A stretch of 45,163 nt of DNA from Victivallales bacterium (GTDB lineage: Bacteria; Verrucomicrobiota; Lentisphaeria; Oligosphaerales; Oligosphaeraceae), in the NCBI GenBank assembly GCA_900769285.1, contig CAAGGB010000279.1:1-45163 (forward strand), in the 5' to 3' direction. The position numbers and the translations under genes are program-made. The notes under the pieces are model-generated. The model saw nothing but the letters and a program-made list of their open reading frames with translations, was not told the DNA's origin and ran no database searches. The first letter of the stretch is position 1; every line of letters begins with the position of its first letter. Positions 3,914-28,185 of the stretch are shown piece by piece.

Positions 3914-3946
3914 CCCGCCCCAACCCCACATCCCCCCCACACACAA

Positions 3947-3982: not shown

Positions 3983-4032
3983 TTGTCTGCCTGACCGCGC
4001 AGGCTCAGTCTGACGCCACCGCGCGGCGCGGC

Positions 4033-10839: not shown

Positions 10840-10943
10840 CACCGCCCGTTTCCCGCTTACATTACACCTCATGCGCCATGCTTCCGACGGCGCCCGGCCC
10901 CGCCTCCCACCAGACAAGACACGCACAGAGGAGAAACCTGTCC

Positions 10944-12742: not shown

Positions 12743-15700
12743 ATGCCCACCTCCACGCGCGCCCGACTCGCCGCCCTGCTCTGCCTGCTCCTCGCCACGC
12801 TGTGCCTCGCCGCCGCACCCGCCACGCAGCCGCTGGACTCCCCCTTGCCCCTCGACGAGCAGGCCATGCTCAAGGCCGCCGCCGCCGTCACCCACCAGGC
12901 CTTCCCCGAGGCCGACACCGCCCTCGTCGACGACAACGTCCTCACCATCTACCAGCAGGACGGCACCAGCGTCACCTGGGACGACATGGCCTACAAGGTC
13001 CTCACCGAGAAGGGCCGCAAATCCCTCCAGACCCTCTCCCTCTACTACTGCGCCTCCTACGGCAAGGCGCAGTTCCGCTTCATCACCCTCCACAAGGCCG
13101 ACGGAACCAAGGTCGAGCTCCCCATCGACAAGCTCACCCGCGAAATGGTCGAGCCTTCCCAGATGCAGAGCAACATCTACAACCCCAACGACAAGGTCAT
13201 CGTCGCCAACGTCCCCGGACTCGACGTCGGAGACACCATCCGCTACTGCGTCCGCCGCGAGACCTTCAAGCCACGCTGCCCCAACACCTTCAGCGACATC
13301 CACCTCCTCGAGTCCGACGAGCTCATCGTCCGCTACACCATCATCGTCGACGGCCCCGCCGAACTCCCCCTCCGCCACATCGCCGTCCGCGACCCCGTCG
13401 GCCAGACCGTCCGCCACTCCCTCGACCCCAGCGCACCCGGACGCATCCGCCACCGCTGGACCATCGCCAACGTGCCGGTCATCCACCGCGAGCCCAAGAT
13501 GCCACCCCTCTCGCGCGTCGCACAGCGCCTCATGCTCTCCACCATCGACTCCTGGAAGGACGTCTCCGCCTGGTACTGGCGACTCTGCCAGCCACACCTC
13601 AAGCCCTCGCCCGACATGAAGGCCAAGGTCGCCGAACTCACCCGCGGACTCACCGACCAGCAGGACATCATCCGCGCCATCTTCACCTTCGTCTCCCAGG
13701 AAATCCGCTACATGGGCATCACCATCGAGGACGACGCGCCCGGCTACGAGCCCCATGACGTCGCACTCACCTTCGCCAAACGCCACGGCGTCTGCCGCGA
13801 CAAGGCCGCACTCCTCGTCGCCATGCTCAACCTCGCCGGACAACAGGCCTTCCCCGTCCTCATCCACGCCGGAAACAAGATGGACCACGAGGTCATCCAG
13901 CCCTACTTCAACCACGCCATCACCGCCGCACTCGCGCCCGACGGCTCCTACATCCTCATGGACCCCACCGACGAGAACACACGAGACCTCCTACCCTCCT
14001 ACCTCGCCGACAAGTCCTTCCTCGTCGCCCGCGAACAGGGCGACACCCTCCGCACCACCCCCTTCTCACCCGCCAGCGACAACCTCCTCGACATCACCAC
14101 CACCGCCAGCATCGACGAGCGCGGAAACCTCGACGCGAAGGCCACCCTCGCCTTCGCCGGCATCCACGACAACGCCTACCGCGGCTTCTTCGCCAACGCC
14201 ACCCCCGAGGACCGCCGCAGCTTCGTCGAGCGCGTCATCCGCAACGTCGCCCCTGGCGCCGTCCTCACCCGACTCGACATCATCCCCGCCAATCTCCTCG
14301 ACACCGCCACCCCGCTCCGGCTCGACGTCGCCTTCACCGCCGAGTCCATCCTCACCCAGAACTCCACCAATGCCCTCCTCGCGCCACCCTTCCTCTCCAG
14401 CACGTTCGGCATGAACAACTTCATCCTCGGCTCCACACAGCTCGACCAGCGCAAATACCCCTTCCTCAGCAAATACGCCTGCGCCATCCGCGAGTCACTC
14501 AAGCTCACCCTCCATCCCACCTGGAAGACACCCGACACACTCCCCGACTACCAGACCGTCCACGACGAGCGCCTCGACTGGTCGCGCACCGTCAAGGCCG
14601 ACGGACAGACCCTCGCCTTCCACACCCGCTTCGACCTCAACGCCATCGAATTCTCGCCCCAGCAGTACCTCACCCTCAAGGAACAGCTCCGGCAGCTCGA
14701 GGACAACGCCAGACGTAGGGTCATCCTCAACCGCGCCGCCACCCCACAGCCCGCCACCGACGCCACCGCCGGCGCCGACGCCGAAATCCTCGAGCACACC
14801 ATCGCCTTCAATCTTCAGGACGCCTACTCCTGGACACAGACCGACTACTCCAAGACCCGCATCCTCACCTACAAGGGCAAGAAGGAGAACGCCGAGGTCT
14901 CCCTCGACTTCAACCCCGCCTGGGAGACCATCCATGTCGACCTCGCCAAGGTCACCACCCCCGACGGCAAGGGCGGAACCCGAACCCAGACCGTCAGCCC
15001 ACAGGAGATGAACCTCATGGACGCCGAATGGGTCGCCGCCGCACCTCGCTACCCCGCCTCCAGGCGCCTCGTCGTCTCACTCCCCGGCGTCGAAATCGGC
15101 TCCGTCATCGAGCTGAAGGTCACCTCCACCTGCAAGAACGGCCCCGCCTTCAGCCTCCAGCACGCCTTCCGCAGGCACAGCGCACCCGTCCGACACATGT
15201 CCGTCTCCGTCAACACACCCTCACAGCTCAAGCTCAGCACCGCCGTCCACCAGAACGGCATCTTCGCCAGCAGCGCCAACGCCCATCAGAGCAACATCGC
15301 CGAGACCTTCGTCTCCGAAAACGGACGCACCATCTGGACCTGGACCGCCGACAGCCAGCCCGCCATCCCCGACGAGCCCTACCAGCCCCCATCCATCGCC
15401 TTCGCTCCTGCCATCCTCATCTCCGCCACCTCCTGGCAACAGCACCTCGCACGACTCAACCAGGCCATCTCACAGCGCTGCATCGCCGGACCGCGCATCC
15501 GCGAGGCCGCCGCCACCATCCGAAAACTCCCCCTCAACCAGCGACTCGCCGCCGTCAACACCTTCCTCGACAAAACCATCGCCAACGCCGGACCATCATT
15601 CCTCGAACTCCCGCTCGACCGACTCTCCGAACCAGAAACCACCCTCGCCGACGGCTACGGACACGACGCCGACCAGGCCATCGCCGCCTTCACCCTCCTC

Positions 15701-16594
15701 CGCGAACTCGACTTCAATCCCGAATTCGTCTTCGCCGCCGACGCTCCCCTCCAGCATGACCTCCTCCAGCAGCAGCTCGCCTGCCCCTCACCCTACCTCT
15801 TCGCCAAACTCCTCGTCCGCGTCGTCCACGAGAACAAAACCTACTGGCTCAACGACCAAAGCCAGTACGCCAACCTACAGACCTGCTCCCGTGACCGCTG
15901 CCCCGCCATGACCGCAGACGCCAAGCTCTTCACCATCACCACGCCCACACCCTTCCGCGAACAGCGCTCCACCTCCTTCAGCATCGCCATCGACGACCAC
16001 GGCGACGCCACACTCTCCTACACCGACGACATCCACGGCACACGCTTCGCCGCCGAAAACCGACGCTTCGCCGAACTCACACCCGAATACCGCCGACGCC
16101 ACTTCCTCGCCCTCGTCAGCCAGTTCTCCAAACGCGCCGTCCCCAGCTCCGAACTCGTCACCGACTTCTCCGGCTACCCCGCCAGACTCTCCTTCTCCTG
16201 CCGCATCCCCAAATTCGCCGTCATCGACGGCCCCTTCTGCTACTTCACCATCCCCAACGCCGCCTTCCGCGCACTCCCACTACGCTTCGACCACCAGCGC
16301 ACCACCCCCATCGCACACACACGGCACACCGAACTCACCTCCACCTTCACCATCACCCTCCCACCCTCACGGCGAACCGTCACCATGGCCCCTCAGAACT
16401 GGGACTGGCTCTCCCCCGACGGACAGTCACGCTACACCATCCGCACCACGCAGCCCACACCCGACACCCTCGTCTGCACCATGACCGCCAGCCAGGCGCC
16501 CGACGTCGCCTTCCCCGGACACCTCGACAAGTACAGACAGCTCGCCGACACCCTCACCCGAAACGACTCCAGAACCTTCCTCCTCAAGAAGTAG
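12743..16594 (+). CDS. Large secreted transglutaminase-like cysteine protease family protein (1283 aa)
   Basis: Signal peptide. The transglutaminase-like core is KRHGVCRDKAALLVAMLNLAGQQAFPVLIHAG (Cys), with downstream His (FNHAITAA) and Asp (ILMDPTDE) completing a putative triad. Confidence 0.8.
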   Translation: MPTSTRARLAALLCLLLATLCLAAAPATQPLDSPLPLDEQAMLKAAAAVTHQAFPEADTALVDDNVLTIYQQDGTSVTWDDMAYKVLTEKGRKSLQTLSLYYCASYGKAQFRFITLHKADGTKVELPIDKLTREMVEPSQMQSNIYNPNDKVIVANVPGLDVGDTIRYCVRRETFKPRCPNTFSDIHLLESDELIVRYTIIVDGPAELPLRHIAVRDPVGQTVRHSLDPSAPGRIRHRWTIANVPVIHREPKMPPLSRVAQRLMLSTIDSWKDVSAWYWRLCQPHLKPSPDMKAKVAELTRGLTDQQDIIRAIFTFVSQEIRYMGITIEDDAPGYEPHDVALTFAKRHGVCRDKAALLVAMLNLAGQQAFPVLIHAGNKMDHEVIQPYFNHAITAALAPDGSYILMDPTDENTRDLLPSYLADKSFLVAREQGDTLRTTPFSPASDNLLDITTTASIDERGNLDAKATLAFAGIHDNAYRGFFANATPEDRRSFVERVIRNVAPGAVLTRLDIIPANLLDTATPLRLDVAFTAESILTQNSTNALLAPPFLSSTFGMNNFILGSTQLDQRKYPFLSKYACAIRESLKLTLHPTWKTPDTLPDYQTVHDERLDWSRTVKADGQTLAFHTRFDLNAIEFSPQQYLTLKEQLRQLEDNARRRVILNRAATPQPATDATAGADAEILEHTIAFNLQDAYSWTQTDYSKTRILTYKGKKENAEVSLDFNPAWETIHVDLAKVTTPDGKGGTRTQTVSPQEMNLMDAEWVAAAPRYPASRRLVVSLPGVEIGSVIELKVTSTCKNGPAFSLQHAFRRHSAPVRHMSVSVNTPSQLKLSTAVHQNGIFASSANAHQSNIAETFVSENGRTIWTWTADSQPAIPDEPYQPPSIAFAPAILISATSWQQHLARLNQAISQRCIAGPRIREAAATIRKLPLNQRLAAVNTFLDKTIANAGPSFLELPLDRLSEPETTLADGYGHDADQAIAAFTLLRELDFNPEFVFAADAPLQHDLLQQQLACPSPYLFAKLLVRVVHENKTYWLNDQSQYANLQTCSRDRCPAMTADAKLFTITTPTPFREQRSTSFSIAIDDHGDATLSYTDDIHGTRFAAENRRFAELTPEYRRRHFLALVSQFSKRAVPSSELVTDFSGYPARLSFSCRIPKFAVIDGPFCYFTIPNAAFRALPLRFDHQRTTPIAHTRHTELTSTFTITLPPSRRTVTMAPQNWDWLSPDGQSRYTIRTTQPTPDTLVCTMTASQAPDVAFPGHLDKYRQLADTLTRNDSRTFLLKK

Positions 16595-16615
16595 ACCCGC
16601 CAGCCTACCAGCCCC

Positions 16616-17590
16616 ATGCCCCTCCTCCACGACTCATCCTACCGGCCACCGACACTCCTCGCCAGCGGACACCTCCAGACCATCCTCCCAAACTACCTCG
16701 CCCACGGCCCCAGCGTCGCCTACACCCGCGAACGACTCCCCACCCCCGACGGAGACCACCTCGCACTCGACTGGGCCACCGTCGGCTCCGACCGACTCGT
16801 CGTCGTCAACCACGGACTCTGCGGACACTCCCGCCGCCACTACGCCCTTCACCTCGCCGACGCCTTCAACCGCCAGGGATGGGACTGCCTCGTCTGGAAC
16901 TACCGCGGCACCTCCGAAGACCCCGAACCTCACGAAAAGCCCATCTTCACCACCAACAACTCCTCCGACGAGCTCGCACTCGTCATCCAACACGCCATCG
17001 ACTCCCGACACTACCGCAAGGTCGGCATCACCGGCTTCAGCATGGGCGGAAACCTCGGACTCCTCTACCTCGGACGACACGCCGACCAGCTCCCCGAACC
17101 CGTCGCCGGCGCCGTGCTCTTCTGCGCCACCACCAACCTCGTCGCCTCCTGCCAGGCCATCCACCGCCCCCTCAACCGACCCTACGAGCGCCATTTCCTC
17201 AGCCTCCTCATCCGCATGGCCAACGACCGCCACCGACAGTTCCCCGAGACGGTCCCCGCCCCCATCCCCTCGCGCATCCACTCCTTCCAGGACTTCGACG
17301 ACGCCATCACCGCACCCGTCTGCGGCTTCCGCAACGCCCTCGACTACTACCAGACCGCCTCCTCCGCCACCTACATCCCGCAGCTCAACCGACCCGCACT
17401 CCTCGTCCAGCCCCTCAACGACCCCTTCCTCGACGGACTCTGCTATCCCGTCCAGGCCGCCCGCGACTCCCATTGCCTCTTCCTCGAGACACCACCCTCG
17501 GGCGGACACTGCGGCTTCATCACCTTCGGCGACACCTGGTGGCCCGCACGGCGAGCCTGCGAATTCCTCGCACCACTCCTAAACGGCTGA
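16616..17590 (+). CDS. Alpha/beta-fold hydrolase, YheT/COG0429-type
   Basis: GHLQTIL N-terminal motif and nucleophile elbow GFSMGGN, in a protein of ~320 aa. This pattern is typical of YheT-like putative esterases. Confidence 0.8.
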   Translation: MPLLHDSSYRPPTLLASGHLQTILPNYLAHGPSVAYTRERLPTPDGDHLALDWATVGSDRLVVVNHGLCGHSRRHYALHLADAFNRQGWDCLVWNYRGTSEDPEPHEKPIFTTNNSSDELALVIQHAIDSRHYRKVGITGFSMGGNLGLLYLGRHADQLPEPVAGAVLFCATTNLVASCQAIHRPLNRPYERHFLSLLIRMANDRHRQFPETVPAPIPSRIHSFQDFDDAITAPVCGFRNALDYYQTASSATYIPQLNRPALLVQPLNDPFLDGLCYPVQAARDSHCLFLETPPSGGHCGFITFGDTWWPARRACEFLAPLLNG

Positions 17591-17683: not shown

Positions 17684-17860
17684 TTAGTCCTCCAGCTTGA
17701 TGGCCTCGCAGGGGCAGGCGTCCACGCAGGCGCCGCAGCCAACGCAGGTGTCCTTGTCGACAACAGCCTTGTCATCAACGATCTTGATGGCCTCGACGGG
17801 GCAGCCATCGACGCAGGTACCGCAGCCGGCGCACTTCTCTTTATCAACAACAGCAGCCAT
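17684..17860 (-). CDS. Ferredoxin, 2x[4Fe-4S] (57 aa)
   Basis: Two CxxCxxCxxxCP motifs (CAGCGTCVDGCP and CVGCGACVDACP). The start MAAVV at 17860 is preceded by GAGGAAAAG 6 nt upstream. The longer ORF 17684..18085 was rejected because its N-terminus is Arg/Gly-rich off-pattern sequence. Confidence 0.85.
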   Translation of the reverse strand: MAAVVDKEKCAGCGTCVDGCPVEAIKIVDDKAVVDKDTCVGCGACVDACPCEAIKLED

Positions 17861-18225
17861 GTTCTTTTCCTCTTCTTTTGTGAGTTGCTTGACGACGGGC
17901 ATGGCACTGCCCGCTTCGCTTGCGCGAACGTCACCAATATAAGGGCTGTGCCCGCAATTGCAATGCGACAACGCCAAATTTGTCGCCGCCACGCCACGCC
18001 CCCACTCCGGACGCCTGTTGCGCCACGCCCCTCTCCACATTCTGGATACTCCTCCCACACCCCTGACGCCCCCCCCCTCACACACCAGGAAAAATTCCTC
18101 CCTCCAGTTCCGGAATGGGCATTGAAGAATTTGCCCCCACAGCTTATATTACCGCTAAAATGTCCTTTTTCCGCGGCCCGACGCCGCCCAGTCCCCCCAC
18201 GAAGTCCCCCTCCGCTCCCCAAACC

Positions 18226-19023
18226 ATGCCACAGCCGCTCCGCGTCGACGTGCACACCCACGTCTTCCACCCCAAAATCGCCGACAAAGTCGTCACCCAG
18301 CTCGAGGCGCACTACCACATCCCCCCCATCGGCAACGGCCGCTGGGAAGACCTCGCCGCGCACCTGGACCGGGCCGGCATCGACGCCTGCTTCGTCCACT
18401 CCGCCGCCACCACACCCCTTCAGGTCATCCCCGCCAACGACTGGGCCATCGCCCTCAACGACAACCCCCGCATCGTACCCTTCGGCACCATGCACCCCGA
18501 CTTCGAGGACATGACCGGCGAACTGGCCCGACTCCATGACCGCGGCATCCGCGGCATCAAGCTCCATCCGGACTTCCAGGGCTTCCGCCTCGACGACCCC
18601 AAGCTCCTCCCACTCTTCGGCGAGATGGAGGGCTCCTTCACCCTCATGGTCCACGTCGGCGACAGCCTCCCGCCAGACCAGAACCCCTCCTGCCCCTACA
18701 AGGTCGCCGCCATCAAGAGGCGCTTCCCAAAACTCCAGATCATCGCCGCCCATTTCGGCGGCTACCGACACTGGCAGTACGTCACCGACGCCCTCCACGG
18801 ACTCGACGTCTACATGGACACCTCCTCCAGCCTCTTCGCCATCCCACAGCCCCTCCTCGAGGACATCTTCTCCCATTTCCCACGACACCTCTTCCTCTTC
18901 GGCTCCGACTACCCACTCTTCCGCGACGAGGACGAGGTCCAGGAACTCCAGCGCCGACTCCGGCTCTCCGACGACGAGCTCGAGGAAATCCTCACCAACG
19001 GCTCCAGGCTGGGACTCTGCTGA
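18226..19023 (+). CDS. Amidohydrolase-2 (PF04909-type) metal-dependent TIM-barrel hydrolase/decarboxylase family protein
   Basis: N-terminal HxH (RVDVHTHVF), then H (MVHVGD), H (AAHFGGY) and D (FGSDYP) in the order expected for amidohydrolase_2. An alternative start at 18115 would add 37 aa (MGIEEF...); it cannot be decided from sequence. Confidence 0.75.
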   Translation: MPQPLRVDVHTHVFHPKIADKVVTQLEAHYHIPPIGNGRWEDLAAHLDRAGIDACFVHSAATTPLQVIPANDWAIALNDNPRIVPFGTMHPDFEDMTGELARLHDRGIRGIKLHPDFQGFRLDDPKLLPLFGEMEGSFTLMVHVGDSLPPDQNPSCPYKVAAIKRRFPKLQIIAAHFGGYRHWQYVTDALHGLDVYMDTSSSLFAIPQPLLEDIFSHFPRHLFLFGSDYPLFRDEDEVQELQRRLRLSDDELEEILTNGSRLGLC

Positions 19024-19026: not shown

Positions 19027-19908
19027 ATGAAGCCCTACGCCTGGAACGGTATCCATCTGCAGCTCCCCGACGACTGGGAGATGCTCCAGTTCTCCAAGGA
19101 CCCCGCGCACGGTCGCATCGTCTTCGGCGACCGCTACCAACTGCGCTTCGAGCTCGACTGGGCCGCACTCGACCTCCCTCCTGACCTCGACCGCATGGCC
19201 GAGGACTACAAGGCAAAGCTCATCCAGGACGGCATCAAGGAGGCCAGACACACCGCCAGACACCCCTGGCAGGGCGTCACCGGACTCCAGGACGGCGCCC
19301 GCATCTCTCGCTACTGCGCCTACTTCAACGACCGCACCTACCTTCTCGAGGCCATCTTCCTCTGGCCACAGGACGACAACCCACGCCATAACCCGCAGTT
19401 CGAGGCGCGCCTCCTCGAGACCATCCGCGTCGTCCCACTCCAGAACGACCACCTCCAGGAATGGAACGCCTTCGGCATCCGCTGCCTCGCGCCCGACGAC
19501 CACCGGCTCGACGACTGCCTCGCCGAACCCGCCAACGTCCGACTCACCTTCACCTCCCCAGACCGCCGGCTCGAGGAGACCGCCACCCGCATCGGCATGC
19601 TCAAGGCCTGGCTCAACCGCGGCGTCGACGACTACCTCCGCACCCTCATCCCCAAGGACTACTCCCTCCTCTCCATGAGCCACGCCACTCAGGACGGACA
19701 CGACGTCTGGACCGCCGAGGCCACCATCACCCGAGCCGTCCTCACCGACTGGTGGCACGGCCGCAGACACTTCTCCGCCGCCGCCTGGATCTGCCCGCAG
19801 GACCAGCGGCTACGCATCCTCACACGAACCGCACCCGACCGCCGCGACGGACTCCCCCCGCCACCCGTCGCCCTCAGCTGCTGCGACAAGCTGGAGGTGA
19901 CCCTGTGA
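19027..19908 (+). CDS. Hypothetical protein (293 aa), no recognisable motif
   Basis: Codon usage is consistent with neighbours. The ATG lies 3 nt after the upstream stop, and its stop overlaps the next gene start (GTGA). This indicates a translationally coupled operon member. Confidence 0.6.
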   Translation: MKPYAWNGIHLQLPDDWEMLQFSKDPAHGRIVFGDRYQLRFELDWAALDLPPDLDRMAEDYKAKLIQDGIKEARHTARHPWQGVTGLQDGARISRYCAYFNDRTYLLEAIFLWPQDDNPRHNPQFEARLLETIRVVPLQNDHLQEWNAFGIRCLAPDDHRLDDCLAEPANVRLTFTSPDRRLEETATRIGMLKAWLNRGVDDYLRTLIPKDYSLLSMSHATQDGHDVWTAEATITRAVLTDWWHGRRHFSAAAWICPQDQRLRILTRTAPDRRDGLPPPPVALSCCDKLEVTL

Positions 19909-20282
19909 GCAAGCCCCACATCGCCACCGTCCAGGACAGCAACTGGAGACGAATGCTCCAGGCCATCCCCGAGAAGAACACCGCCGCACAGGTCACCCGA
20001 CACGGCGAGCAGGTCACCATCTCCATCCGCAACGTCCGGCCAGCCTACCTCAAGCCGCCCATCTCCTGGTTCGTCCCCTTCAAGGAACGCAGAGTCGTCA
20101 CCCTCGACCCAATCGGCACACGGCTCTGGTCCCTCTGCGACGGCTCGCGGACCGTCGAGGACCTCATCGACGCCTTCTGCGCCGACTACGGACTCACCTT
20201 CCACGAGGCCAAGACCTGCGTCACCGACTACCTCAAGAAGCTCGTCCAGAGAGGCGTCCTCGCTGTCGTCATCGACTCCTGA
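19905..20282 (+). CDS. PqqD-family protein (RiPP recognition element-like peptide chaperone), 125 aa
   Basis: VTLDPIGTRLWSLCDGSRTVEDLIDAFCADYGLTFHEAKTCVTDYLKKLVQRGVL fits the PqqD/RRE pattern (L-N-x-T-x-x-x-I-W-x-L-x-D-G-x-x-T-v-x-E-I-x-x-x-L-x-x-x-Y-x-v-...-D-v-x-x-F-L-x-x-L-x-x-x-G-L-I). The GTG start overlaps the upstream stop. Confidence 0.7.
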   Translation: MSKPHIATVQDSNWRRMLQAIPEKNTAAQVTRHGEQVTISIRNVRPAYLKPPISWFVPFKERRVVTLDPIGTRLWSLCDGSRTVEDLIDAFCADYGLTFHEAKTCVTDYLKKLVQRGVLAVVIDS

Positions 20283-20468
20283 CACCGCCACCAAAAAAAC
20301 CGCTCCCCGTAGGGGACGACGCCAATATGCGCCCCGCCCCATGCGTTGTAATCTAGTGTCGTGTTCCCCGGACACCCCGTCCGCGCACACACGCCCCCCC
20401 ACACACAAACTGGAACAGCATCACATAGCAAGCAAACCACCGACCAAAGGCACCCAGCAGGACCGAAC

Positions 20469-21986
20469 ATGAAAGAGATCAACATCGCAGAACAACCCTG
20501 GCTCAGTCTGAAGCGCACCGTGAAGATCACCATCGACGGCATCAGATACCGGTTGTTCCGGGCCACCGTCACCGTCGCCGTCATCGTCGTCGCCGTGGCC
20601 TTCCTCATGAACATCCTCGCCGAGTCCCTCATCAAGCGCGCCGTCGCCGCCGACACCCGCGAACGCTCCGACAACGCACAGCTCAACTCCAACTGGTCCA
20701 CCAAGCTCACCGCCACCGGCTCTCCCGAGTCCATCGTCGCCGAACTCGCCCGACTCGACGCCACCGCCGACGTCAACGTCGAGACCCGTAACTTCATCCG
20801 GCTCGCCGACGACGACTTCGCCAGGCTCCAGGACACCGCACGAGACGTCCAGTACGTCCTCGACTTCTTCGACGACCTCGACTACGCCAAGCGCCGAGAC
20901 CTCATCAAGACAGCCGCCGGACTCGAAATCCTCGACTACCTCGCGCGACCCGAGAACTTCGACACCTTCAAGCTCGGACTCGACCGCTACCGCATGATCC
21001 GCTTCGAGATGGACTTCGACAAGCTCCAGAAGCTCATCGCCGAACGCGCCGTCTTCCGCAAGACCCTCGACGACATCATCGCCAAGCGCCACGAGGCCAA
21101 CGCCAAGATCACCGCCTTCCTCAAGGCCGAGTACAGGGACAACCCAACACTCGTCAACGACGCCGACCGACTCGCCATGGCCATGACCAACGCCGACGGC
21201 AAATTCGGCGACGTCATCCGCAGCGCCGGCTTCAACTTCGACCCCCAGCGCATCGCACCCATCGTCGCCGACCAGGCCAAGAACCAGCAGTTCATCCTCC
21301 GCATGAAATTCTCCATCACCGGCGCCAGCAACAAGACCCGACAGCTCCTCGCGCAGGAGGCCAACAAGATACCCTCCGACATCAACGAGGCCATCATGTG
21401 GGACTACCTCGAAAGCGCCTCCTTCGCCAAGCGCTACATCCAGGTCATGCAGGAGAGCGGCATGGACACCACCGACCTCACCCCCGAACTCCTCGTCAAG
21501 CTCGCCAAGGCCCGCAAGGAGACCGCCGCGCTCGCACGCGCCAAGCGACTCACCATGGACTCCGGAAAGGGCTTCATGGGACTCGGCGAGCGACTCGCCT
21601 ACCTCCTCGTCGTCTCCTTCCTCGTCTGCGGCATCGGCATCACCAACGCCATGATGATGTCCGTCACCGAGCGCTTCACCGAAATCGCCACCCTCAAGTG
21701 CCTCGGCGCACTCGACGGCTTCATCATGATCATGTTCGTCCTCGAAAGCTGCATCATGGGCATCGTCGGCGGAACCATCGGCGCCGTCATCGGCGCCGTC
21801 ATCGGCACCGGACGCATGATGGCATCCTTCGGCGTCAACTTCTTCGCCGCCATCCCCGTCCTCGACATCTTCGGTGGCATCCTCATCTCCATCCTCCTCG
21901 GTACACTCCTCGCCGCCTTCGCCGCCGTCGTCCCATCCTTCAAGGCCGCACGGCTCGCACCCATGGAGGCCATGCGCGTCGAATAG
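20469..21986 (+). CDS. ABC transporter permease, FtsX/MacB family
   Basis: N-terminal TM (ATVTVAVIVVAVAFLMNIL), a ~330-aa periplasmic domain, then the FtsX signature MSVTERFTEIATLKCLGA followed by 3 TM helices. Confidence 0.85.
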   Translation: MKEINIAEQPWLSLKRTVKITIDGIRYRLFRATVTVAVIVVAVAFLMNILAESLIKRAVAADTRERSDNAQLNSNWSTKLTATGSPESIVAELARLDATADVNVETRNFIRLADDDFARLQDTARDVQYVLDFFDDLDYAKRRDLIKTAAGLEILDYLARPENFDTFKLGLDRYRMIRFEMDFDKLQKLIAERAVFRKTLDDIIAKRHEANAKITAFLKAEYRDNPTLVNDADRLAMAMTNADGKFGDVIRSAGFNFDPQRIAPIVADQAKNQQFILRMKFSITGASNKTRQLLAQEANKIPSDINEAIMWDYLESASFAKRYIQVMQESGMDTTDLTPELLVKLAKARKETAALARAKRLTMDSGKGFMGLGERLAYLLVVSFLVCGIGITNAMMMSVTERFTEIATLKCLGALDGFIMIMFVLESCIMGIVGGTIGAVIGAVIGTGRMMASFGVNFFAAIPVLDIFGGILISILLGTLLAAFAAVVPSFKAARLAPMEAMRVE

Positions 21987-22073: not shown

Positions 22074-22844
22074 ATGGAAGAGACCAACAGAACAGCAGCA
22101 GGCGAGAAGAGCGCCGAAAGGCGAGTCATCATCCGAACCGTCGGACTCAAGAAGATCTACACGATGAACAACGTCACCACCGAGGCCCTCCGAGGCGTCG
22201 ACATGTCCATCTTCCAGGGCGAGTTCATCTCCGTCATGGGCCCCTCCGGCTCCGGAAAGTCCACCTTCTTCAACATGATCGGCGCCCTCGACAGCCCCTC
22301 CATCGGACGCGTCTTCATCGACGAGGTCGACGTCGCCCAGCTCACCGCCGAGGAGCTCGCCTTCCTCCGCTGCCACAAGATCGGCTACATCTTCCAGAGC
22401 TACAACCTCATCCGCTACATGACCGCACTCGAGAACGTCACCACTCCCATGGCCTTCGGCGGTGTCCAGCCCGACGAGGCCCGCGAGCGCGGCATGAACA
22501 TCCTCGACCTCGTCGGACTCAAGGAACGCTGGCACCACCGCCCCATCGAGATGTCCGGCGGACAGCAGCAGCGCGTCGCCATCGCCCGCTCCCTCGCCAA
22601 CGACCCCTCCGTCCTCCTCTGCGACGAGCCCACCGCCAACCTCGACCTCCACACCGGACAGGAAATCCTCGACATCCTCAAGCGACTCAACGTCGAGAAG
22701 GGCGTCACCGTCATCTGCGCCACCCACGACCACCGCATGATGAACATCTGCGACCGGCTCATGTGGATCCGCGACGGACGCATCGACCGCATCGCCAACC
22801 GCGAGGACGTCCACATCGAGGTCGGAGGCATCGAGGGACACTGA
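22074..22844 (+). CDS. ABC transporter ATP-binding protein (MacB/LolD-type ATPase)
   Basis: Walker A GPSGSGKST, Q-loop, signature SGGQQQRVAIAR, Walker B LLCDEPTANLD and H-loop ATHD. Confidence 0.9.
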   Translation: MEETNRTAAGEKSAERRVIIRTVGLKKIYTMNNVTTEALRGVDMSIFQGEFISVMGPSGSGKSTFFNMIGALDSPSIGRVFIDEVDVAQLTAEELAFLRCHKIGYIFQSYNLIRYMTALENVTTPMAFGGVQPDEARERGMNILDLVGLKERWHHRPIEMSGGQQQRVAIARSLANDPSVLLCDEPTANLDLHTGQEILDILKRLNVEKGVTVICATHDHRMMNICDRLMWIRDGRIDRIANREDVHIEVGGIEGH

Positions 22845-22968: not shown

Positions 22969-25900
22969 ATGCGATCACTGCTCAAAACCTCAAGGGCCCT
23001 GGGACTGGGCGCCATCTTCAGTCTCACCGCTGGCCTGGCCTTCGCGCAGCAGCCGAACGACCCCAAGGCCACCTTCAACCGCGACTGCGCCGAAATCGGA
23101 CGCTTCCCGCACCGGCTCACCGGCACCGCCGAGTACCGCCAGGCCGCCGACTACATCGAGCGCCGCCTCCGCGCCATCGTCAGCGCCAAGGACGGCGACC
23201 AGGTCATCGTGCAGCCCTTCGACTCCGCCCAGATCGTCACCCCCACCGTCAAGACCGACCCCAACGACCGCCGCAACGACGCCATCGTCAAGGGACAGGA
23301 CCAGGAGGCCACCGCCACCCTTACCGCACCCGCCGGCAAGACCATCCGACTCCACCCCATGAGGCCCAACGGCATCATCCCGCCCGCCACCCCGCGCGGA
23401 GGCCTCTCCGGTCACATCGTCTACCTCGGACGCGGCGACGCCGCCGACTTCAACCGCATCAACGTCAAGGACGCCATCGTCGTCCTCAACTACAACTCCG
23501 GACAGGGCTTCATCCGCGCCTTCCGACTCGGCGCCAAGGCCATCGTCTTCACCCGCGGCAACGACATGCCCGAGAAGGCCATGTCCTCCAGCCCCCACTT
23601 CGCCGACTGCAACGTCAACCTCATGCGCTACTACTTCGACGGCACCGCCGCCCAGCTCAAGGCCGACTGCCCCGAGAACGCCACCGTCGCCATCGACTGC
23701 AAGCTCAACTGGGGCTACGCCCGCGGACGTAACATCTACGCCTACATCAAGGGCACCAACGCCAAATTCGACCCCGACAAACGCCATGAGGTCATCGTCC
23801 TCGCCGCCAACCTCGACACCTTCGGCGAAGTCCCCAACCTCACCCCAGGCGCCCGCGGAGCCGCCAACGCCGCCGCGCTCCTCCGACTCGCCGAACACAT
23901 CGTCGCCAGCCGCCCGCGACGCGATGTCGTCATCGCCTTCTTCGACCAGCAGGCCCGCGGACACGTCGGCGTCTCGCACTTCTACCAGGCCATCGAGGAC
24001 AAGAAGGACAACCAGGTCACCGACCGCCGCATCTCCTTCCGCAACGAGACCAACTTCATGAAGCTCATGGACGAGCAGCTCGCCGACGCCTCCCCGCTCA
24101 CCAAGAGCTCCGACGTCCGCAAGAAGCTCCTCGACAAGCTCGAGGTCCTCTCTCAGACACACGCCTACTACTACAAGAACGAGGCCTACGAGAAGCGCGA
24201 ACGGCTCAACCAGCGCAAGAAGGCCGCCGCCGCCGCAGGCGGCGTCACCGACGAGCTCCGCAAGGAGGAGCAGGAGCTCAACCAGCTCATCGCCGCCGAA
24301 CTCGAGCCCAAGAAGATGGCCTGGAACGAAGTCCAGAGAACCATCGGACGCGAAAAGCGCAAGTACACCGGCGACGACCAGCCCCTCCAGCTCGACCCCG
24401 AACTCTCCGAACAGGAGCGCACCCTCGTCAACCAGTTCCTCGCACAGGTCCTCGACGAGGCCCGCCGCGACTACGACGTCCGCAAGGAGGAGCTCAAGCG
24501 CGAGGACGAGGCCCTCGCCGCCGACGAGGCACTCTACGACATCTTCTACCCCAAGGCCCTCGACGAACAGGGACAGCCCATCCTCGAGAACGAGGAGGAC
24601 GGCATCTACGCCCGCGACCCCAAGCAGGCCCGAACCATCGTCCTCCACGCCTCCCTCCTCCTCGGCGACACCACCCGCAAGTGGGCCATCATCATCGGCG
24701 GCGACTCCTCCATCCACAGCGGCGACGACAACCAGGGACTCTACGGCAAGGTCCGCAACGCCTTCCTCAACGCCTACAAGGCCATCGCCGCCAACGCCGC
24801 CCCCAACGCCGACGTCCAGGACAACTTCCTCGTCGAGTCCGCTGACCAGAAGCTGAACCAGACCCGCGTCATCTGGGCCGCACCCAGACTCGTCCACTCC
24901 GGCGAAATGGCCGGCGTCCTCGGCTACTTCAACCTCGCACTCGGAACCGTCCAGGAGGCCACCCTCCTCGAGGGCACGCCCGACGACACCTTCGCCAACA
25001 TCAGCGCCGACGCCATCTACGCGCAGATCCGCGACATCGAGCGCTTCTTCGCACCCGCCGCCAACTTCCCCGAACAGGCCGCCGCCGACATGCTCGGAAA
25101 CCAGGAGGGACTCTCCCTCAACAAGGGCTTCCCCACCAACAAGGAGTACTTCATCGCCAAATTCGACGAGGACAACAACACCAAGGGACCAACCGTCATG
25201 GGCATGCTCCCCGGCACCTCCACCCCCAACACACCCCTCGCCGGCGCCATCGTACAGCTCCGACTCTCCCGCAACTTCTCACTCGCCTACGCCGAGTCCA
25301 AATTCGTCGCCTTCGACAACTACCAGGTCCACCGCACCGACGCCAACGGACACTACAACCTCGGCCCCCTCAACGGACGCACCGCCGGCTCCTGGGGCGG
25401 CTTCGCCGCCGTCTTCCGCCCCGAAGGCAACCTCGATGAGGTCTCCGCGCAGAGCACCTACACCAACGGCACCATCCGCTACCGACTCAACACCTTCAAG
25501 GCCAAGGGCGCCTACGTCGTCCTCCCCTCACAGCAGCGCACCGAAAAGCTCCCCGGCGAGGACGTCAAAATCCTCTCCTCAAAGGCCAACGCCGACCTCG
25601 TCACCAACCGCTCCTTCTCCGAGACCGTCGACGGCATCGTCGCCTGGTACTCCGACGAGCGCGAGCGCGGCGTCAAGCTCTTCTCTCTCCGACAGATGGT
25701 CGGACTCAACAACGGCAACGAGCAGAAGAGCCGACTCGACGCCTCCGACGCCGGTAAGCTCCAGGACGACGGCACCGACAAGTACGTCGGCGTCGGCTTC
25801 GAAATGACCGAACACCCCATCAGCGTCAACGCCGCCGCACGCTCCGCCTCCGACCTCTGGCGCATCAACGACTCCAGACTCGACATCCTCCGCAACAAGG

Positions 25901-28185
25901 GCATCCTCGACTCCTCACTTGCCGAACTCCACGGACGCTCCGAGGACATGCTCAACGACGCCGCTGACTCACAGCAGCCCATGCGCCGCGAGGCTCTCAA
26001 CACCTTCTCCTTCTGGTCCTCCAGACCCGTCTACCTCAAGGTCCGCTCCATGCTCGACGACCTCGTCTTCGCCGTCCTCATCCTCCTCGGACTCTCCGTC
26101 CCCTTCGCCTTCGCACTCGAACGCGTCATCATCGGCGCCGTCACCATCTACAAGCAGATCTCCTGGTTCATCGCGTTCTTCGCCATGACCTTCGTCCTCC
26201 TCTACCTCACCCACCCCGCCTTCGCCATCGCCAACACACCCATCATCATCTTCCTCGGCTTCGCCATCGTCGTCATGTCCTGCATGGTCATCTTCATCAT
26301 CATGCGCAAATTCGAGGTCGAGCTCAAGGCCATGCAGGGCATGACCGCCACCGTCCACGTCAACGACGTCTCCAACATCTCCACATTCATGGCCGCCATG
26401 CAGATGGGCATCTCCACCATGAGACGACGCCCCACCCGCACCGCCCTCACCGCCATCACCATCATCCTCCTCACCTTCACCATCCTCTGCTTCGCCTCCT
26501 TCGGCACCCAGAACGGCATCGTCACCATCTCCGTCGCCCCCAACCCCAAGTACAACGGCGCCTTCGTCCACAACGTCAACTGGAACCCGCTCTCCGAAGA
26601 CCTCAAGGACATGATCACCTACAGCCGGGCCGGCGAAGGCGAATCCTCCGCCATCCGCTCCGTCTGCAAGCGACTCTGGATCTCACCCAAGACTCAGGAC
26701 AACCCCGGACTCCTCATCTCCAGAGCCGACGGAACGCTCCCGACCACCATCCGCGGCGTCCTAGGCATCGAGCCTCAGGAACTCAACGAGCGCGAGGAAT
26801 TCATGGAGTACTTCCAGAAGATCGACGACGACTCCATCCTCATCACCCAGCCCGTCGCCGAATACCTCAAGGTCGCCGAGGGCGACACCGTCGTCCTCAA
26901 GGGACACACCTTCAAGGTCGGAAAGATCTTCGACAACGTCAGGGTCTCCGCCGCCAAGGACATGGACACCTCCTCCATCCTCCCCGCCGACTTCACCGAA
27001 ATGACCGCCAACCAGCCCGTCTCCTCAGACAACGACGAGGAGATGGACGCCATGAGCCAGCGAAACTGGTCCTCCATCCCCGTCGACCAGGTCGTCATCG
27101 TCTCCGCCAACAACGCCAAGCTCCTCGGAGCTAACCTCTACGCCCTCGTCGTCTACACAAACACCACCCAGCAGGCCATCTCCATCGCCGAGGAGCTCGC
27201 CCGTGTCCTCAACATCCCCATCCCCGCCACCCGCGAGAACGGCGTCGAACGACACCTCCTCGGCTCCGTCCTCAAGGCCTCCGGCGCCAAGGACCTCTTC
27301 TTCCCCATCGTCCTCGGCGGACTCGTCATCTTCGGAACCATGCTCGGCTCCGTCGCCGACCGCAAGAAGGAAATCTACACCTTCTCCGCACTCGGTCTCG
27401 CCCCGAGACACGTCGCCACACTCTTCTTCGCCGAATCCATGGTCTACGCCCTCATCGGCGGCCTCGGCGGATACCTCCTCGCTCAGGGTACCCTCAAGAT
27501 CCTCGGCTTCCTCGCCGAATACGGCATCGTCAGAGTCCCCGAGATGAACATGTCCTCCACCAACACCATCGTCACCATCCTCATCGTCATGGCGACCGTC
27601 CTCATCTCCTCCATCTACCCCGCCATCAAGGCCTCAAAGTCCGCCAACCCCGGACTCATGAGAACCTGGAGACCACCCAGACCCGACGGCGACGTCATGG
27701 ATCTCGTATTCCCCTTCACCGTCTCCCAGTACGACATCACCGGCGTCCTCTCCTTCCTCAAGGAGCACTTCGCCAACCACACCGACACCGGACTCGGACA
27801 GTTCATGACCTCCAGCGTCGAACTCGTCAAGGAAAAGGACGCCAAGGAACTCGCACTCGGACTCGACGCCAAGCTCGCGCTCGCACCCTTCGACCTCGGC
27901 GTCTCCCAGAACTTCTCCCTCCGCAGCGCTCCCTCCGAAATCGAGGGCATCGACGAGGTCCGCGTCATCCTCTCCAGAGCCTCCGGACAGCCCAAGGACT
28001 GGCAGAGACTCAACAAGGTCTTCCTCGATGACCTCAGACAGCAGTTCCTCATCTGGCGCTCCGTCCCCAAGGACACCATGGAGATGTACCGCCACAGAAC
28101 CCTCACCAGCATCGACGGCATCGCTGAAGTCGTCACCCCGCCCAAAAAGGCCGACGCCAACCCCGACGCCAAACCAAAGGCCTAA
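22969..28185 (+). CDS. Giant fusion protein (1738 aa): N-terminal PA-domain/M28-peptidase-like ectodomain (metal ligands substituted), coiled-coil region, 3 TM linker, complete FtsX/MacB-type permease
   Basis: Signal peptide MRSLLKTSRALGLGAIFSLTAGLAFAQQ. The M28-like N-terminus has HRLTGTAEYRQAADYIERRL and a PA-domain-like insert DAIVVLNYNSGQGFIRAFRLGAKAIVF. In the M28 core the canonical H-x-D, GAxDNASG and EE metal ligands are replaced (VLAANLD, GARGAANAA, FFDQQ). A Glu/Lys-rich helical region follows (KKAAAAAGGVTDELRKEEQELNQ...). Three hydrophobic helices lie at residues ~1040-1110. The FtsX N-terminal helix is MRRRPTRTALTAITIILLTFTILCF, with a periplasmic domain after it. The FtsX core is KKEIYTFSALGLAP plus 3 TM, and the cytoplasmic tail is ~170 aa. 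Confidence 0.8.
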   Translation: MRSLLKTSRALGLGAIFSLTAGLAFAQQPNDPKATFNRDCAEIGRFPHRLTGTAEYRQAADYIERRLRAIVSAKDGDQVIVQPFDSAQIVTPTVKTDPNDRRNDAIVKGQDQEATATLTAPAGKTIRLHPMRPNGIIPPATPRGGLSGHIVYLGRGDAADFNRINVKDAIVVLNYNSGQGFIRAFRLGAKAIVFTRGNDMPEKAMSSSPHFADCNVNLMRYYFDGTAAQLKADCPENATVAIDCKLNWGYARGRNIYAYIKGTNAKFDPDKRHEVIVLAANLDTFGEVPNLTPGARGAANAAALLRLAEHIVASRPRRDVVIAFFDQQARGHVGVSHFYQAIEDKKDNQVTDRRISFRNETNFMKLMDEQLADASPLTKSSDVRKKLLDKLEVLSQTHAYYYKNEAYEKRERLNQRKKAAAAAGGVTDELRKEEQELNQLIAAELEPKKMAWNEVQRTIGREKRKYTGDDQPLQLDPELSEQERTLVNQFLAQVLDEARRDYDVRKEELKREDEALAADEALYDIFYPKALDEQGQPILENEEDGIYARDPKQARTIVLHASLLLGDTTRKWAIIIGGDSSIHSGDDNQGLYGKVRNAFLNAYKAIAANAAPNADVQDNFLVESADQKLNQTRVIWAAPRLVHSGEMAGVLGYFNLALGTVQEATLLEGTPDDTFANISADAIYAQIRDIERFFAPAANFPEQAAADMLGNQEGLSLNKGFPTNKEYFIAKFDEDNNTKGPTVMGMLPGTSTPNTPLAGAIVQLRLSRNFSLAYAESKFVAFDNYQVHRTDANGHYNLGPLNGRTAGSWGGFAAVFRPEGNLDEVSAQSTYTNGTIRYRLNTFKAKGAYVVLPSQQRTEKLPGEDVKILSSKANADLVTNRSFSETVDGIVAWYSDERERGVKLFSLRQMVGLNNGNEQKSRLDASDAGKLQDDGTDKYVGVGFEMTEHPISVNAAARSASDLWRINDSRLDILRNKGILDSSLAELHGRSEDMLNDAADSQQPMRREALNTFSFWSSRPVYLKVRSMLDDLVFAVLILLGLSVPFAFALERVIIGAVTIYKQISWFIAFFAMTFVLLYLTHPAFAIANTPIIIFLGFAIVVMSCMVIFIIMRKFEVELKAMQGMTATVHVNDVSNISTFMAAMQMGISTMRRRPTRTALTAITIILLTFTILCFASFGTQNGIVTISVAPNPKYNGAFVHNVNWNPLSEDLKDMITYSRAGEGESSAIRSVCKRLWISPKTQDNPGLLISRADGTLPTTIRGVLGIEPQELNEREEFMEYFQKIDDDSILITQPVAEYLKVAEGDTVVLKGHTFKVGKIFDNVRVSAAKDMDTSSILPADFTEMTANQPVSSDNDEEMDAMSQRNWSSIPVDQVVIVSANNAKLLGANLYALVVYTNTTQQAISIAEELARVLNIPIPATRENGVERHLLGSVLKASGAKDLFFPIVLGGLVIFGTMLGSVADRKKEIYTFSALGLAPRHVATLFFAESMVYALIGGLGGYLLAQGTLKILGFLAEYGIVRVPEMNMSSTNTIVTILIVMATVLISSIYPAIKASKSANPGLMRTWRPPRPDGDVMDLVFPFTVSQYDITGVLSFLKEHFANHTDTGLGQFMTSSVELVKEKDAKELALGLDAKLALAPFDLGVSQNFSLRSAPSEIEGIDEVRVILSRASGQPKDWQRLNKVFLDDLRQQFLIWRSVPKDTMEMYRHRTLTSIDGIAEVVTPPKKADANPDAKPKA

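Follow-up and report, generated by a model that had tools for sequence, protein, structure and literature searches.

RiPP recognition elements (RREs) serve as beacons in mining for peptide natural products, and to our knowledge the characterised RREs of the PqqD family all act in RiPP or PQQ-type pathways. Discrete members of the family, including TbiB1, FusB1, LppB/PbaB1 and PqqD, are small, stand-alone proteins that carry the PF05402 signature on a strand-plus-three-helix winged-helix fold and are translationally coupled to a partner. Type VII ABC systems (MacB, LolCDE and FtsEX, including DarBCD) combine FtsX-domain permeases with LolD-like ATPases. The characterised MacB/LolCDE-type units act on periplasmic or outer-leaflet substrates, and we know of no MacB-type pump with a cytoplasmic substrate; it is thus not obvious what a peptide binder in the cytoplasm would do beside such a pump.

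Such an arrangement is found in the window, a stretch of 45,163 nucleotides from a Victivallales bacterium, in which a PqqD-like gene lies upstream of a set of ABC transporter genes. What does an RRE do in such a place? The first-pass annotation had described the gene as an orphan that lacks both a modifying enzyme and a precursor peptide. We compared the locus with ~75 related loci, of which almost all belong to PVC-superphylum genomes. The orphan is explained because the PqqD-like gene forms a conserved pair with the 293-codon gene that precedes it (X293) within a transporter cluster. We consider it reasonably likely that X293 and the PqqD-like protein constitute a dedicated two-protein cytoplasmic module of a conserved PVC envelope transport apparatus and do not belong to a RiPP pathway.

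Results

The coordinates of the X293 and PqqD-like ORFs and their GTGA coupling, as given by the first-pass annotation, were borne out by direct reading of the sequence (Table 1). The same 4-nt overlap is present in 53 of the 68 loci that hold both genes, and two more loci (L047 and L073) carry in-frame fusions. The two genes are adjacent in 56 of 61 species-level loci and in two others with a frameshifted X293, and pairing at this frequency (56–58/61) is far above chance. A search of representative proteins returned fusions of 426 aa (P0220, equal in length to the L073 ORF) and 507 aa (P0251), both with the PqqD domain at the C-terminus; in-frame fusions occur in divergent lineages. Exceptions to the pairing include an Opitutales locus (L068), in which the FtsX gene directly follows X293 without PqqD, and L050, in which X293 stands alone. 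The X293 family comprises 894 clusters at 50% identity. Hydropathy analysis identified no TM-like segments in X293 or the PqqD-like protein, and the N-termini of both lack the look of a signal peptide by eye.

Table 1. Features of the X293–PqqD pair and its surroundings in the window
Feature	Coordinates	Strand	Description
Promoter-like site	18122–18150	+	TTGAAG, 17 nt spacer, TATATT; upstream of amidohydrolase
Amidohydro_2 gene	18226–19023	+	Metal-dependent TIM-barrel hydrolase family, 265 aa, Pfam 77.6 bits
X293 ORF	19027–19908	+	ATG 19027, TGA 19906–19908, 293 aa; previously unnamed family, appears cytoplasmic
X293/PqqD start/stop overlap	19905–19908	+	GTGA, read directly in the sequence; translational coupling
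PqqD-like ORF	19905–20282	+	GTG start 19905, 125 aa; PqqD family, RRE fold
PqqD/FtsX spacer	20283–20468	.	A-run, short GC hairpin (20304–20316), then conserved block
FtsX-type permease (MacB/LolC-like)	20469–21986	+	505 aa, one FtsX domain (Pfam 51.6 bits), large periplasmic loop
ABC ATPase 1, LolD/MacB/DarD-like	22074–22844	+	75–88% identity over related loci, near-identical L005 aside
Giant FtsX-type permease	22969–28185	+	1738 aa; FtsX Pfam 43.8 bits
OPT-like polytopic membrane protein	28262–30298	+	678 aa; 55–84% identity over related loci, near-identical L005 aside
ABC ATPase 2, LolD/MacB-type	30432–31163	+	Next gene after the OPT-like one at every locus with a long enough contig

The RRE assignment of the 125-aa protein holds both by profile and by fold. 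PF05402 matches residues 61–119 well above the gathering threshold (E=1.4e-12; 48.2 bits against 23.4) and is present in all 31 homologues. In the AF2 model (pLDDT 80), strands are followed by three helices (residues 69–77, 84–95 and 99–115) in a winged-helix fold, and RREs are the best Foldseek matches, led by the leader-bound lasso RRE TbiB1 (E 1e-4, TM 0.79–0.81 on target, probability 1.0). Profile comparison with the PDB likewise retrieved TbiB1 (E=0.0045) and LppB (9x8z; E=0.018). The protein differs from the described discrete RREs in an N-terminal extension of ~35 residues, a conserved [KR]P.[YFW]..PP[IL]SW segment (residues 45–55) and an LTFHE motif that is invariant in the subfamily at the start of helix 3. 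Moreover, it scores below the cut-off of every curated PqqD subfamily model, including PQQ-biosynthesis PqqD (TIGR03859; 22.4 bits against 46), lasso B1 (NF033536; 25 against 80), GeoRSP PqqD (TIGR04302; 30.3 against 100) and ScmD (TIGR04248; 26.8 against 100), and no scanned window ORF matches the PqqB, PqqC or PqqE families. Judged by its sequence, the protein is a distinct PqqD/RRE subfamily. Motifs in helix 1 and helix 3 do not vary among the members aligned, which come from several phylum-level lineages; this constancy suggests that the ligand, too, is conserved and is not a leader that evolves fast.

Discrete lasso RREs read the leader motif [Y/W]xxPx[L/V/I/F/A] (PMC13381572), and the internal [YFW]xxPP[IL]SW segment fits this motif. 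The segment could, as a weaker and improbable possibility, serve as a pseudo-leader within the protein itself and control access to the binding groove. However, the profile alignment with LppB sets ISWFVP at the apparent strand preceding beta3, which would put it off the leader-binding edge, and AF2 gives the segment as a loop without structure (pLDDT ~70).

X293 has no match in Pfam (E<=0.01), NCBIfam or PADLOC, and its profile retrieved nothing relevant from the PDB (E > 0.2); the lack of a PADLOC match led us to discard a defence-system reading. In the confident model of the protein, two PsbP/Mog1-like alpha/beta domains stand in tandem and match an alpha/beta sandwich, with PsbP, TplEi and BT_1490 as the top fold matches and no enzyme-like fold among the matches. 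The modelled fold is of a binding type and not enzymatic. X293 contains many invariant charged residues, as well as His and Cys, within the Lentisphaerae clade, but the conserved Cys and His residues are missing from distant and fused members. Both observations argue against the earlier suggestion that X293 is a new RRE-dependent modifying enzyme. The C-terminal SCC of X293 was also considered as a core peptide and rejected, given that the tail forms strands inside a domain (pLDDT 95) and the motif is missing in the fusions.

The PsbP/Mog1 fold group, which includes DcrB, LpqN, the T6SS immunity proteins TplEi and Tsi3 and the Eag (DUF1795) proteins, resembles X293 in fold without a sequence-level relation. 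In many cases the matched proteins reside in the periplasm or a lumen or are secreted, whereas X293 appears to be cytoplasmic and is paired or fused with an RRE. The Eag T6SS effector chaperones differ further in that the adjacent prePAAR/TMD effector and the T6SS context are absent at X293. We found no description of a combination of an RRE with a PsbP/Mog1-like protein in the literature.

The pair is usually the head of a transporter cluster with the recurrent order X293, PqqD, (DUF6785/DUF6784), FtsX, ABC, giant, OPT-like and ABC, which is kept in four phylum-level lineages (Lentisphaeria, Kiritimatiellia, Verrucomicrobia and Planctomycetota). The DUF6785/DUF6784 permease occurs in most lineages other than the present one. 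Among the 46 species loci with enough sequence, 38 have the FtsX gene downstream of X293 at a distance of no more than 5 kb, and in eight the pair stands alone amid unrelated housekeeping genes, indicating that the transporter linkage is frequent but not obligatory. Reciprocal look-ups returned the same cluster from the OPT-like gene (3/3) and from PqqD (2/2). Thus, the co-occurrence of the PqqD-like protein with the downstream ABC genes that the first-pass annotation had proposed to examine is confirmed as conserved synteny. When all ORFs from 74 loci were clustered without bias, no further same-strand gene family proved recurrent. The conservation of the ATPase and the OPT-like protein (Table 1) is of a degree that we consider typical of housekeeping genes. 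Full-text literature searches retrieved no paper on the X293–PqqD/transporter system.

The transporter genes, in which the FtsX and ABC_tran domains were recognised, share FtsX-domain permeases and LolD-like ATPases with the Type VII ABC systems, and the PDB relatives of the 505-aa permease are the 5xu1 permease, MacB, LolF and LolC. However, the set falls below the equivalog cut-offs for LolCDE, MacB, FtsEX and DarD (LolD, 215 and 239 bits against 308; LolC/E, 45 against 362; MacB, 45 against 966; ABC ATPase 1 against the darobactin exporter model DarD, 210 bits and below cut-off), and four components of the cluster have no NCBIfam match. It further differs from Type VII systems in the size of one permease, the giant, which has both an M28/nicastrin-like domain and a cytoplasmic tail that is conserved, and in the OPT-like and DUF6785 permeases and the cytoplasmic RRE module that accompany the ABC genes.

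The giant permease ranges from 1550 to 1990 aa over related loci. It consists of an N-terminal periplasmic PA/M28-like (nicastrin-like) domain, a Lys/Glu/Arg-rich stretch with the look of a coiled coil by eye, a membrane region with the FtsX domain and a nearly invariant C-terminal cytoplasmic domain (~1560–1712), and hydropathy analysis identified seven TM-like segments. The M28 Pfam score of the N-terminal domain is below threshold (20.7 bits against 21.3), and the profile of the giant protein matches aminopeptidase 2ek8 (E 8e-12), nicastrin (E 2e-4), YwaD and also MacB in the PDB; from the 2ek8 and nicastrin matches, we regard the relationship to M28 as real at the fold level. At the metal-ligand positions, where the M28 consensus reads AHxDS, GAxDN and EE, the giant family reads AANLDS, PGARGAAN and FFDxQARGH, and the domain is probably catalytically dead. 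Its ligand motifs are replaced as in nicastrin, which is a non-catalytic substrate receptor. The giant's domain differs from nicastrin and the PA-M28 aminopeptidases in its fusion to a bacterial ABC permease, and any receptor function for it is putative.

The OPT-like protein matches PF03169 at 27.3 bits (cut-off 25.8) over model positions 527–616 of 623 only, corresponding to its C-terminal 90 residues. Precomputed Pfam OPT matches are weak or absent in many of its homologues, which number at least 3475 (the best 120 all at least 64% identical), and NCBIfam has no model for it. This weak match and the database names of the homologues ('peptide transporter' and 'OPT/YSL family transporter') are what the protein has in common with the OPT oligopeptide transporters, from which it differs in that an ABC ATPase gene always follows it here. 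A paralogous relationship between the OPT-like and DUF6785 proteins was rejected (hhalign probability 3.9%).

In the spacer that follows PqqD, the hairpin has weak covariation support from three sequences, and Rfam reported only an unrelated cobalamin riboswitch. The spacer contains no conserved small ORF; a 43-aa ORF (20341–20472) was rejected because indels break its reading frame in a 75%-identical relative (L076). At many other loci, PqqD overlaps or abuts the next gene.

Upstream of X293, the amidohydrolase probably starts at ATG 18226, which gives 265 aa (homologues, 265–266 aa), and not at the mechanical ORF start at 18115; its stop codon (19021–19023) ends 3 nt ahead of the X293 ATG. 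The promoter-like site in front of it is one of two detected (0.3 expected from shuffles), the second being divergent and positioned for a minus-strand ferredoxin gene, and transcription of the unit probably begins there in this genome. Across the related loci, no more than 5 of 67 species loci have an amidohydrolase of >50% identity beside the pair, and the gene is thus a lineage-specific neighbour and not a core part. In five loci (L001, L002, L010, L011 and L013), a ~200-nt gap with promoter-like hexamers by eye lies between it and X293; L019 has a similar gap without them. These findings speak against the amidohydrolase as the RRE-dependent enzyme that the first-pass annotation had offered as an alternative to X293. 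None of the six gaps contains a conserved ORF, and a 47-aa gene called in the L001 gap is not conserved. The sole solved relative of the amidohydrolase is the uncharacterised BB4693.

Canonical RiPP partners are absent both from the window and from the ~75 related loci, in agreement with the first-pass annotation. The 26 window ORFs that were scanned, three of which (159–1739, 1294–5244 and 43516–44253) have no family match of any kind, yielded no match to the rSAM, YcaO, lanthipeptide or lasso families. A CxxxCxxC motif occurs once in the gene set, within a GT2 glycosyltransferase. The suggested scan for precursor genes by blastp clustering took in the ORFs of 20–110 aa that lie outside the core genes and found none conserved within 2.5 kb of the related clusters, a result that applies to linked, conserved ORFs of this size and not to genes of <20 aa, fast-evolving genes or unlinked genes. 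Apart from shadow frames of genes nearby and low-complexity families, the clustering gave nothing.

Discussion

X293–PqqD is best read as a cytoplasmic adaptor or chaperone module of the transport apparatus. X293 and the PqqD-like protein would join as a cytoplasmic module, which is a single polypeptide in some lineages. The apparatus would comprise two MacB/LolCDE-type ABC units, formed by the ~500-aa FtsX permease, the giant FtsX permease and two LolD-like ATPases, together with the OPT-like permease and, in most other lineages, the DUF6785/DUF6784 permease. The RRE fold most likely provides a site for an extended peptide, which may be a transported oligopeptide or the tail of a membrane subunit, and X293, through its tandem PsbP/Mog1-like domains, most likely provides a docking or chaperone surface. 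The module thereby departs from the discrete PqqD-family RREs, having a non-enzymatic PsbP-like partner and a transporter-cluster context in place of a B2 protease, an rSAM enzyme or a precursor. Such an assignment suggests that a leader-binding fold was recruited for a non-biosynthetic job.

The first-pass annotation had proposed, as its second alternative, that the RRE hands a peptide substrate to the ABC machine. Conserved synteny favours this alternative over a new enzyme, but not in its literal form, given that both ABC units are of the MacB/LolCDE type. Because units of this type take periplasmic or outer-leaflet substrates, it is more plausible, by analogy with the characterised systems, that a cytoplasmic RRE would work with the OPT-like or DUF6785 permeases or assist the complex as an adaptor or chaperone. 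A more specific proposal, which we put forward tentatively, is that the pair forms the cytoplasmic peptide-receiving or peptide-delivering end of an unrecognised PVC trans-envelope peptide-handling machine, in which a nicastrin-like pseudo-aminopeptidase receptor sits on a MacB-type mechanotransducer and is joined by OPT-like and DUF6785 permeases and the RRE module. If true, an RRE would here be seen for the first time as a subunit of a transporter and not in RiPP biosynthesis.

A role confined to membrane protein assembly is rather unlikely. X293, as a pseudo-dimeric claw similar to Eag (DUF1795) proteins, would hold with the RRE a hydrophobic helix or tail of the giant FtsX, OPT-like or DUF6785 protein before or during membrane insertion and would have no part in substrate handling. 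However, the top fold matches of X293 are not Eag proteins, a prePAAR- or T6SS-like client is absent, and the pair is also found unlinked from membrane genes.

Slightly less probable still is a cryptic RiPP or peptide-derived cofactor pathway, in which the RRE would present an unlinked or overlooked precursor to a new enzyme, either X293 or else the amidohydrolase of this lineage, and the ABC, OPT-like and M28-like proteins would process and export the product. The precedent of the characterised PqqD-family RREs favours such a pathway, as do the invariant charged, His and Cys residues of X293 in the Lentisphaerae clade, the use of MacB-type exporters by some RiPP clusters (although ABC ATPase 1 stays below the DarD cut-off) and the size of PqqA-like precursors, which can be ~23 aa and are easily overlooked. 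The nearest solved PqqD relatives, moreover, are leader-binding RREs of lasso and LPP systems (PMC13381572). Against this stand the lack of RiPP enzyme families in the scanned window ORFs, the lack of a further gene family in 74 loci or of a conserved small ORF near the clusters, the binding-type fold of X293 and the loss of its Cys and His in fused and distant members, the scarcity of the amidohydrolase and the absence of canonical metal-ligand motifs from the M28-like domain. The conservation and phylum-wide spread of the system also resemble housekeeping rather than secondary metabolism.

We think it improbable that the pair is a regulatory module in which the winged-helix RRE and X293 sense or regulate ATPase activity or transcription instead of carrying a peptide. 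The RRE fold resembles a winged helix and is also known from non-RiPP proteins such as Rv2067c and PKMT, and PsbP/Mog1-like domains serve PknH and RseB/MucB in sensing or regulation; however, stoichiometric coupling, fusion to X293 and a position ahead of the structural genes better suit a subunit, and nothing suggestive of DNA binding was noticed. The view that the PqqD-like gene stands beside unrelated genes by accident is effectively refuted by the synteny, namely the conserved order, the overlap, the fusions and the reciprocal look-ups across four phylum-level lineages.

Read as an adaptor or chaperone module of a transport apparatus, the PqqD-like subfamily would be a recurrent false positive in RRE-based mining. 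The comparison also delimits a 7–8-gene envelope system of Lentisphaerae, Kiritimatiellia, Verrucomicrobia and Planctomycetes, and its parts show what we take to be housekeeping-like levels of conservation. One carrier, Oligosphaera ethanolica DSM 24202, is in culture, which makes experiments possible.

The X293–PqqD gene pair

The 125-aa product of the window (PqqD) proved to be an RRE protein, as the first-pass annotation had claimed: it matches Pfam PqqD at 48.2 bits (cut-off 23.4), and its AlphaFold model (pLDDT 80; 32 homologues as input), a beta-sheet followed by three helices, is closest to RREs. The top PDB match is the leader-bound lasso RRE TbiB1 (E about 1e-4, TM 0.8 on target), followed by the RREs PbtF, ThcOx, MibB and PqqD, and a profile search of PDB sequences gives the same picture (TbiB1, E=0.0045; LppB, E=0.018; PqqD, E=0.067). 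The protein falls under every cut-off of the curated PqqD subfamily models (PQQ, lasso, GeoRSP, ScmD). Its own subfamily is marked by an extended N-terminus, a conserved [KR]P.[YFW]..PP[IL]SW segment, W..CDG closing helix 1 and an invariant LTFHE where helix 3 begins. Discrete lasso RREs read a [Y/W]xxPx[L/V/I/F/A] motif in leader peptides (PMC13381572), and the internal [YFW]xxPP[IL] of PqqD fits this motif. A built-in pseudo-leader is only a weak possibility because, in the profile alignment to LppB, the subsequent ISWFVP lies at a position resembling the strand preceding beta3, and the loop of the segment is unstructured in the AlphaFold model.

The neighboring 293-aa protein, X293, has no match in Pfam, NCBIfam or PADLOC. 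It was modeled as two tandem alpha/beta domains (pLDDT 90.3, pTM 0.85), which we take to be binding modules, and no enzyme fold occurs among its strong structural matches, which lends no support to the earlier suggestion of a new RRE-dependent modifying enzyme. A word-indexed search returned 19 homologue clusters for X293 and 31 for PqqD, and an exhaustive profile search (clustering at 50% identity) returned 894 for X293, almost all of them 270-310 aa long.

The coupling of the two genes noted at first pass is confirmed by the ORF readings, in which GTGA is common to the X293 stop and the PqqD start. Such an NTGA overlap is found in 53 of 68 loci having both genes. Moreover, X293 and PqqD form a single reading frame in two Verrucomicrobia genomes (L047 and L073), and a representative-protein search yielded further X293 fusions with a C-terminal PqqD domain (P0220, 426 aa; P0251, 507 aa). 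Two features of the Lentisphaerae clade, the AWICP cysteine and the SCC motif at the C-terminus, are absent from the L047 and L073 fusions. Overlap and fusion are the strongest available indication that X293 and PqqD act as a complex. Hydropathy revealed no TM-like segment in either protein, and no signal-peptide-like N-terminus was seen by eye; both are most likely cytoplasmic, judging from sequence.

Positions of features in the window and in related loci
Feature	Locus	Positions	Strand	Remarks
Cobalamin riboswitch RF00174	window	6748-6971	+	48.7 bits; gathering score 31.5
TonB-dependent receptor ORF	window	6966-9062		directly downstream of riboswitch
DUF3857/transglutaminase-core and alpha/beta hydrolase genes	window	12743-17590		DUF3857 protein, 1283 aa
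Syntenic genes	L077	1-4425
Ferredoxin terminator-like hairpin	window	17658-17615		19 bp
2x[4Fe-4S] ferredoxin	window	17684-17860	-	small
Ferredoxin promoter-like site	window	17963-17936
Promoter-like site upstream of Amidohydro_2	window	18122-18150	+
Amidohydro_2	window	ATG 18226 (likely real start), stop 19021-19023	+	265 aa, as in homologues
X293	window	ATG 19027, TGA 19906-19908	+	293 aa
PqqD	window	GTG 19905 to 20282	+	125 aa
X293–PqqD fusion	L047	10001-11257		418 aa
X293–PqqD fusion	L073	1244-2524		426 aa
DUF6785/DUF6784 permease	L073	12740-15154
PqqD–FtsX spacer	window	20283-20468		
Giant FtsX protein	window	22969-28185	+	
PqqD–FtsX spacer	L076	2274-2460
PqqD–FtsX spacer	L005	2304-2480

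Conserved neighborhood and transporter components

A one-genome-per-species scan identified 68 loci, nearly all in Lentisphaeria/Victivallales, Kiritimatiellia, Verrucomicrobia/Opitutales and Planctomycetota; the cultured Oligosphaera ethanolica DSM 24202 is among the carriers, and the nearest match to the window (97%) is a Lentisphaeria MAG. According to the tblastn synteny table, about 45 loci share one gene order: X293, PqqD, a DUF6785/DUF6784 permease (680-810 aa; position variable), an FtsX permease (about 490 aa), a LolD-like ATPase, a giant FtsX protein (1550-1990 aa), an OPT-like permease and a second LolD-like ATPase. At species level, PqqD adjoins X293 in 56 of 61 loci, plus two with a frameshifted X293, FtsX lies within 5 kb in 38 of 46, and the giant protein lies within 10 kb in 35 of 42. 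The DUF6785/DUF6784 gene, which the 45-kb window lacks, occurs in 27 of 67 species loci and is placed between PqqD and FtsX, upstream of X293 or past the second ATPase; L015 and L018 (Lentisphaeria) carry two copies each. When all ORFs of 74 loci were clustered without prior assumptions, the recurrent same-strand neighbors were the cluster families, Amidohydro_2 (8 loci) and MurJ (6 loci), and no other family. Reverse look-ups from OPT-like homologues, picked arbitrarily, and PqqD homologues returned the same cluster (3/3 and 2/2, respectively). In eight loci, the X293–PqqD pair stands alone amid unrelated housekeeping genes. Identity to the window proteins, the near-identical L005 excepted, is 75-88% for ATPase-1, 55-84% for the OPT-like protein, 31-56% for PqqD and 27-46% for X293.

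Both ATPases are LolD/MacB/DevA/FtsE-like and lie under all equivalog cut-offs, and the 505-aa permease is similar to MacB, LolC and LolF. The N-terminal periplasmic domain of the giant protein resembles, at profile level, PA-domain M28 aminopeptidases (2ek8, E 8e-12) and nicastrin (E 2e-4). Its metal-ligand motifs are replaced: family-wide, AANLDS, PGARGAAN and FFDxQARGH occupy the places of the M28 consensus zinc-ligand and catalytic residues, and the domain is probably non-catalytic and receptor-like. The cytoplasmic C-terminal domain of the giant protein (about 150 aa; residues about 1560-1712) is almost invariant in 14 aligned sequences. The OPT-like protein is strongly conserved, its top 120 homologues all reaching at least 64% identity, and is far more numerous, in the word-indexed search, than X293.

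The PqqD–FtsX spacer keeps an A-run and a short GC hairpin with a stem sequence that varies among relatives; a conserved block, CCAATAT...CGTTsTAATCTAGTG, follows. This could be an internal promoter or RNA element (three sequences).

Possible role of the RRE

What is the function of an RRE in this cluster? The data fit X293–PqqD as a cytoplasmic module belonging to an envelope apparatus. Three parts have peptide-related ancestry, namely the periplasmic M28/nicastrin-like domain, the OPT-like permease and the cytoplasmic RRE, and thus the ligand is most likely a peptide or protein terminus. Since the substrates of characterized MacB-type pumps are periplasmic or in the outer leaflet, the RRE would more plausibly serve the OPT-like or DUF6785 permeases or dock on some cytoplasmic portion of the complex. 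An Eag-like role purely in assembly, as a chaperone, cannot be distinguished from this transporter-module reading by the present data.

The data do not fit a RiPP cluster because no modifying enzyme was found and no conserved small ORF (20-110 aa) that could encode a precursor turned up within 2.5 kb of the clusters, the partner of PqqD is non-enzymatic, the RRE helix motifs are invariant among aligned members, pointing to a conserved ligand, and conservation is at a level judged housekeeping-like. Among the 26 sizeable ORFs of the window, three of which match no family, Pfam detected none belonging to the radical-SAM, YcaO, lanthipeptide or lasso enzymes, in agreement with the first-pass annotation. 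The sole CxxxCxxC lies inside a GT2 glycosyltransferase.

The fold families of the system are already known. What appears undescribed is an RRE paired with, or fused to, a tandem PsbP-like protein, together with the fixed place of this pair in a two-pump, OPT-like, DUF6785 cluster and the spread of the cluster over four PVC lineages: four system components are unmatched by NCBIfam models, and full-text literature searches found nothing on the system. There is a modest but genuine chance that the cluster represents a novel kind of envelope machine, with the RRE in a non-biosynthetic role.

Amidohydrolase and other window features

The amidohydrolase, also put forward as an RRE-dependent enzyme, is not a core partner because it is limited to a Lentisphaeria sub-clade (above 50% identity in 5 of 67 species loci) and is mostly gapped from X293. 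A gap of 2-3 nt occurs only in the window, where the Amidohydro_2 stop lies 3 nt ahead of the X293 start, L005 and L076. About 200 nt separate the genes in L001, L002, L010, L011 and L013, and this gap holds no conserved ORF in these loci; it contains TTGAAA/TTGATT, a spacer and TGCTAAAGT-like hexamers, promoter-like by eye. L019 has the same gap without this element. The ferredoxin gene runs divergently from the amidohydrolase promoter and was not seen beside the cluster in other inspected loci. The upstream DUF3857 and hydrolase genes are syntenic in L077, whose X293 is 58% identical.

The riboswitch–receptor arrangement is presumably that expected of a B12 uptake receptor. Most plus-strand genes in window 1-34000 show an extreme C-ending codon preference (third-position C about 0.73, G about 0.17), the probable basis of the GC skew of about -0.3. 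This bias is missing from the Stealth, GT8 and initial LRR/Big_2 genes (34600-37500; 47-52% GC), which may form a foreign glycosyltransferase island. Unlike their neighbors, the long ORFs 1294-5244, which has no Pfam match and overlaps ORF 159-1739, and 9168-12533 have third-position C of just 0.34 and 0.49, and the mechanical ORF calls may not reflect how the genes are really arranged in these places.
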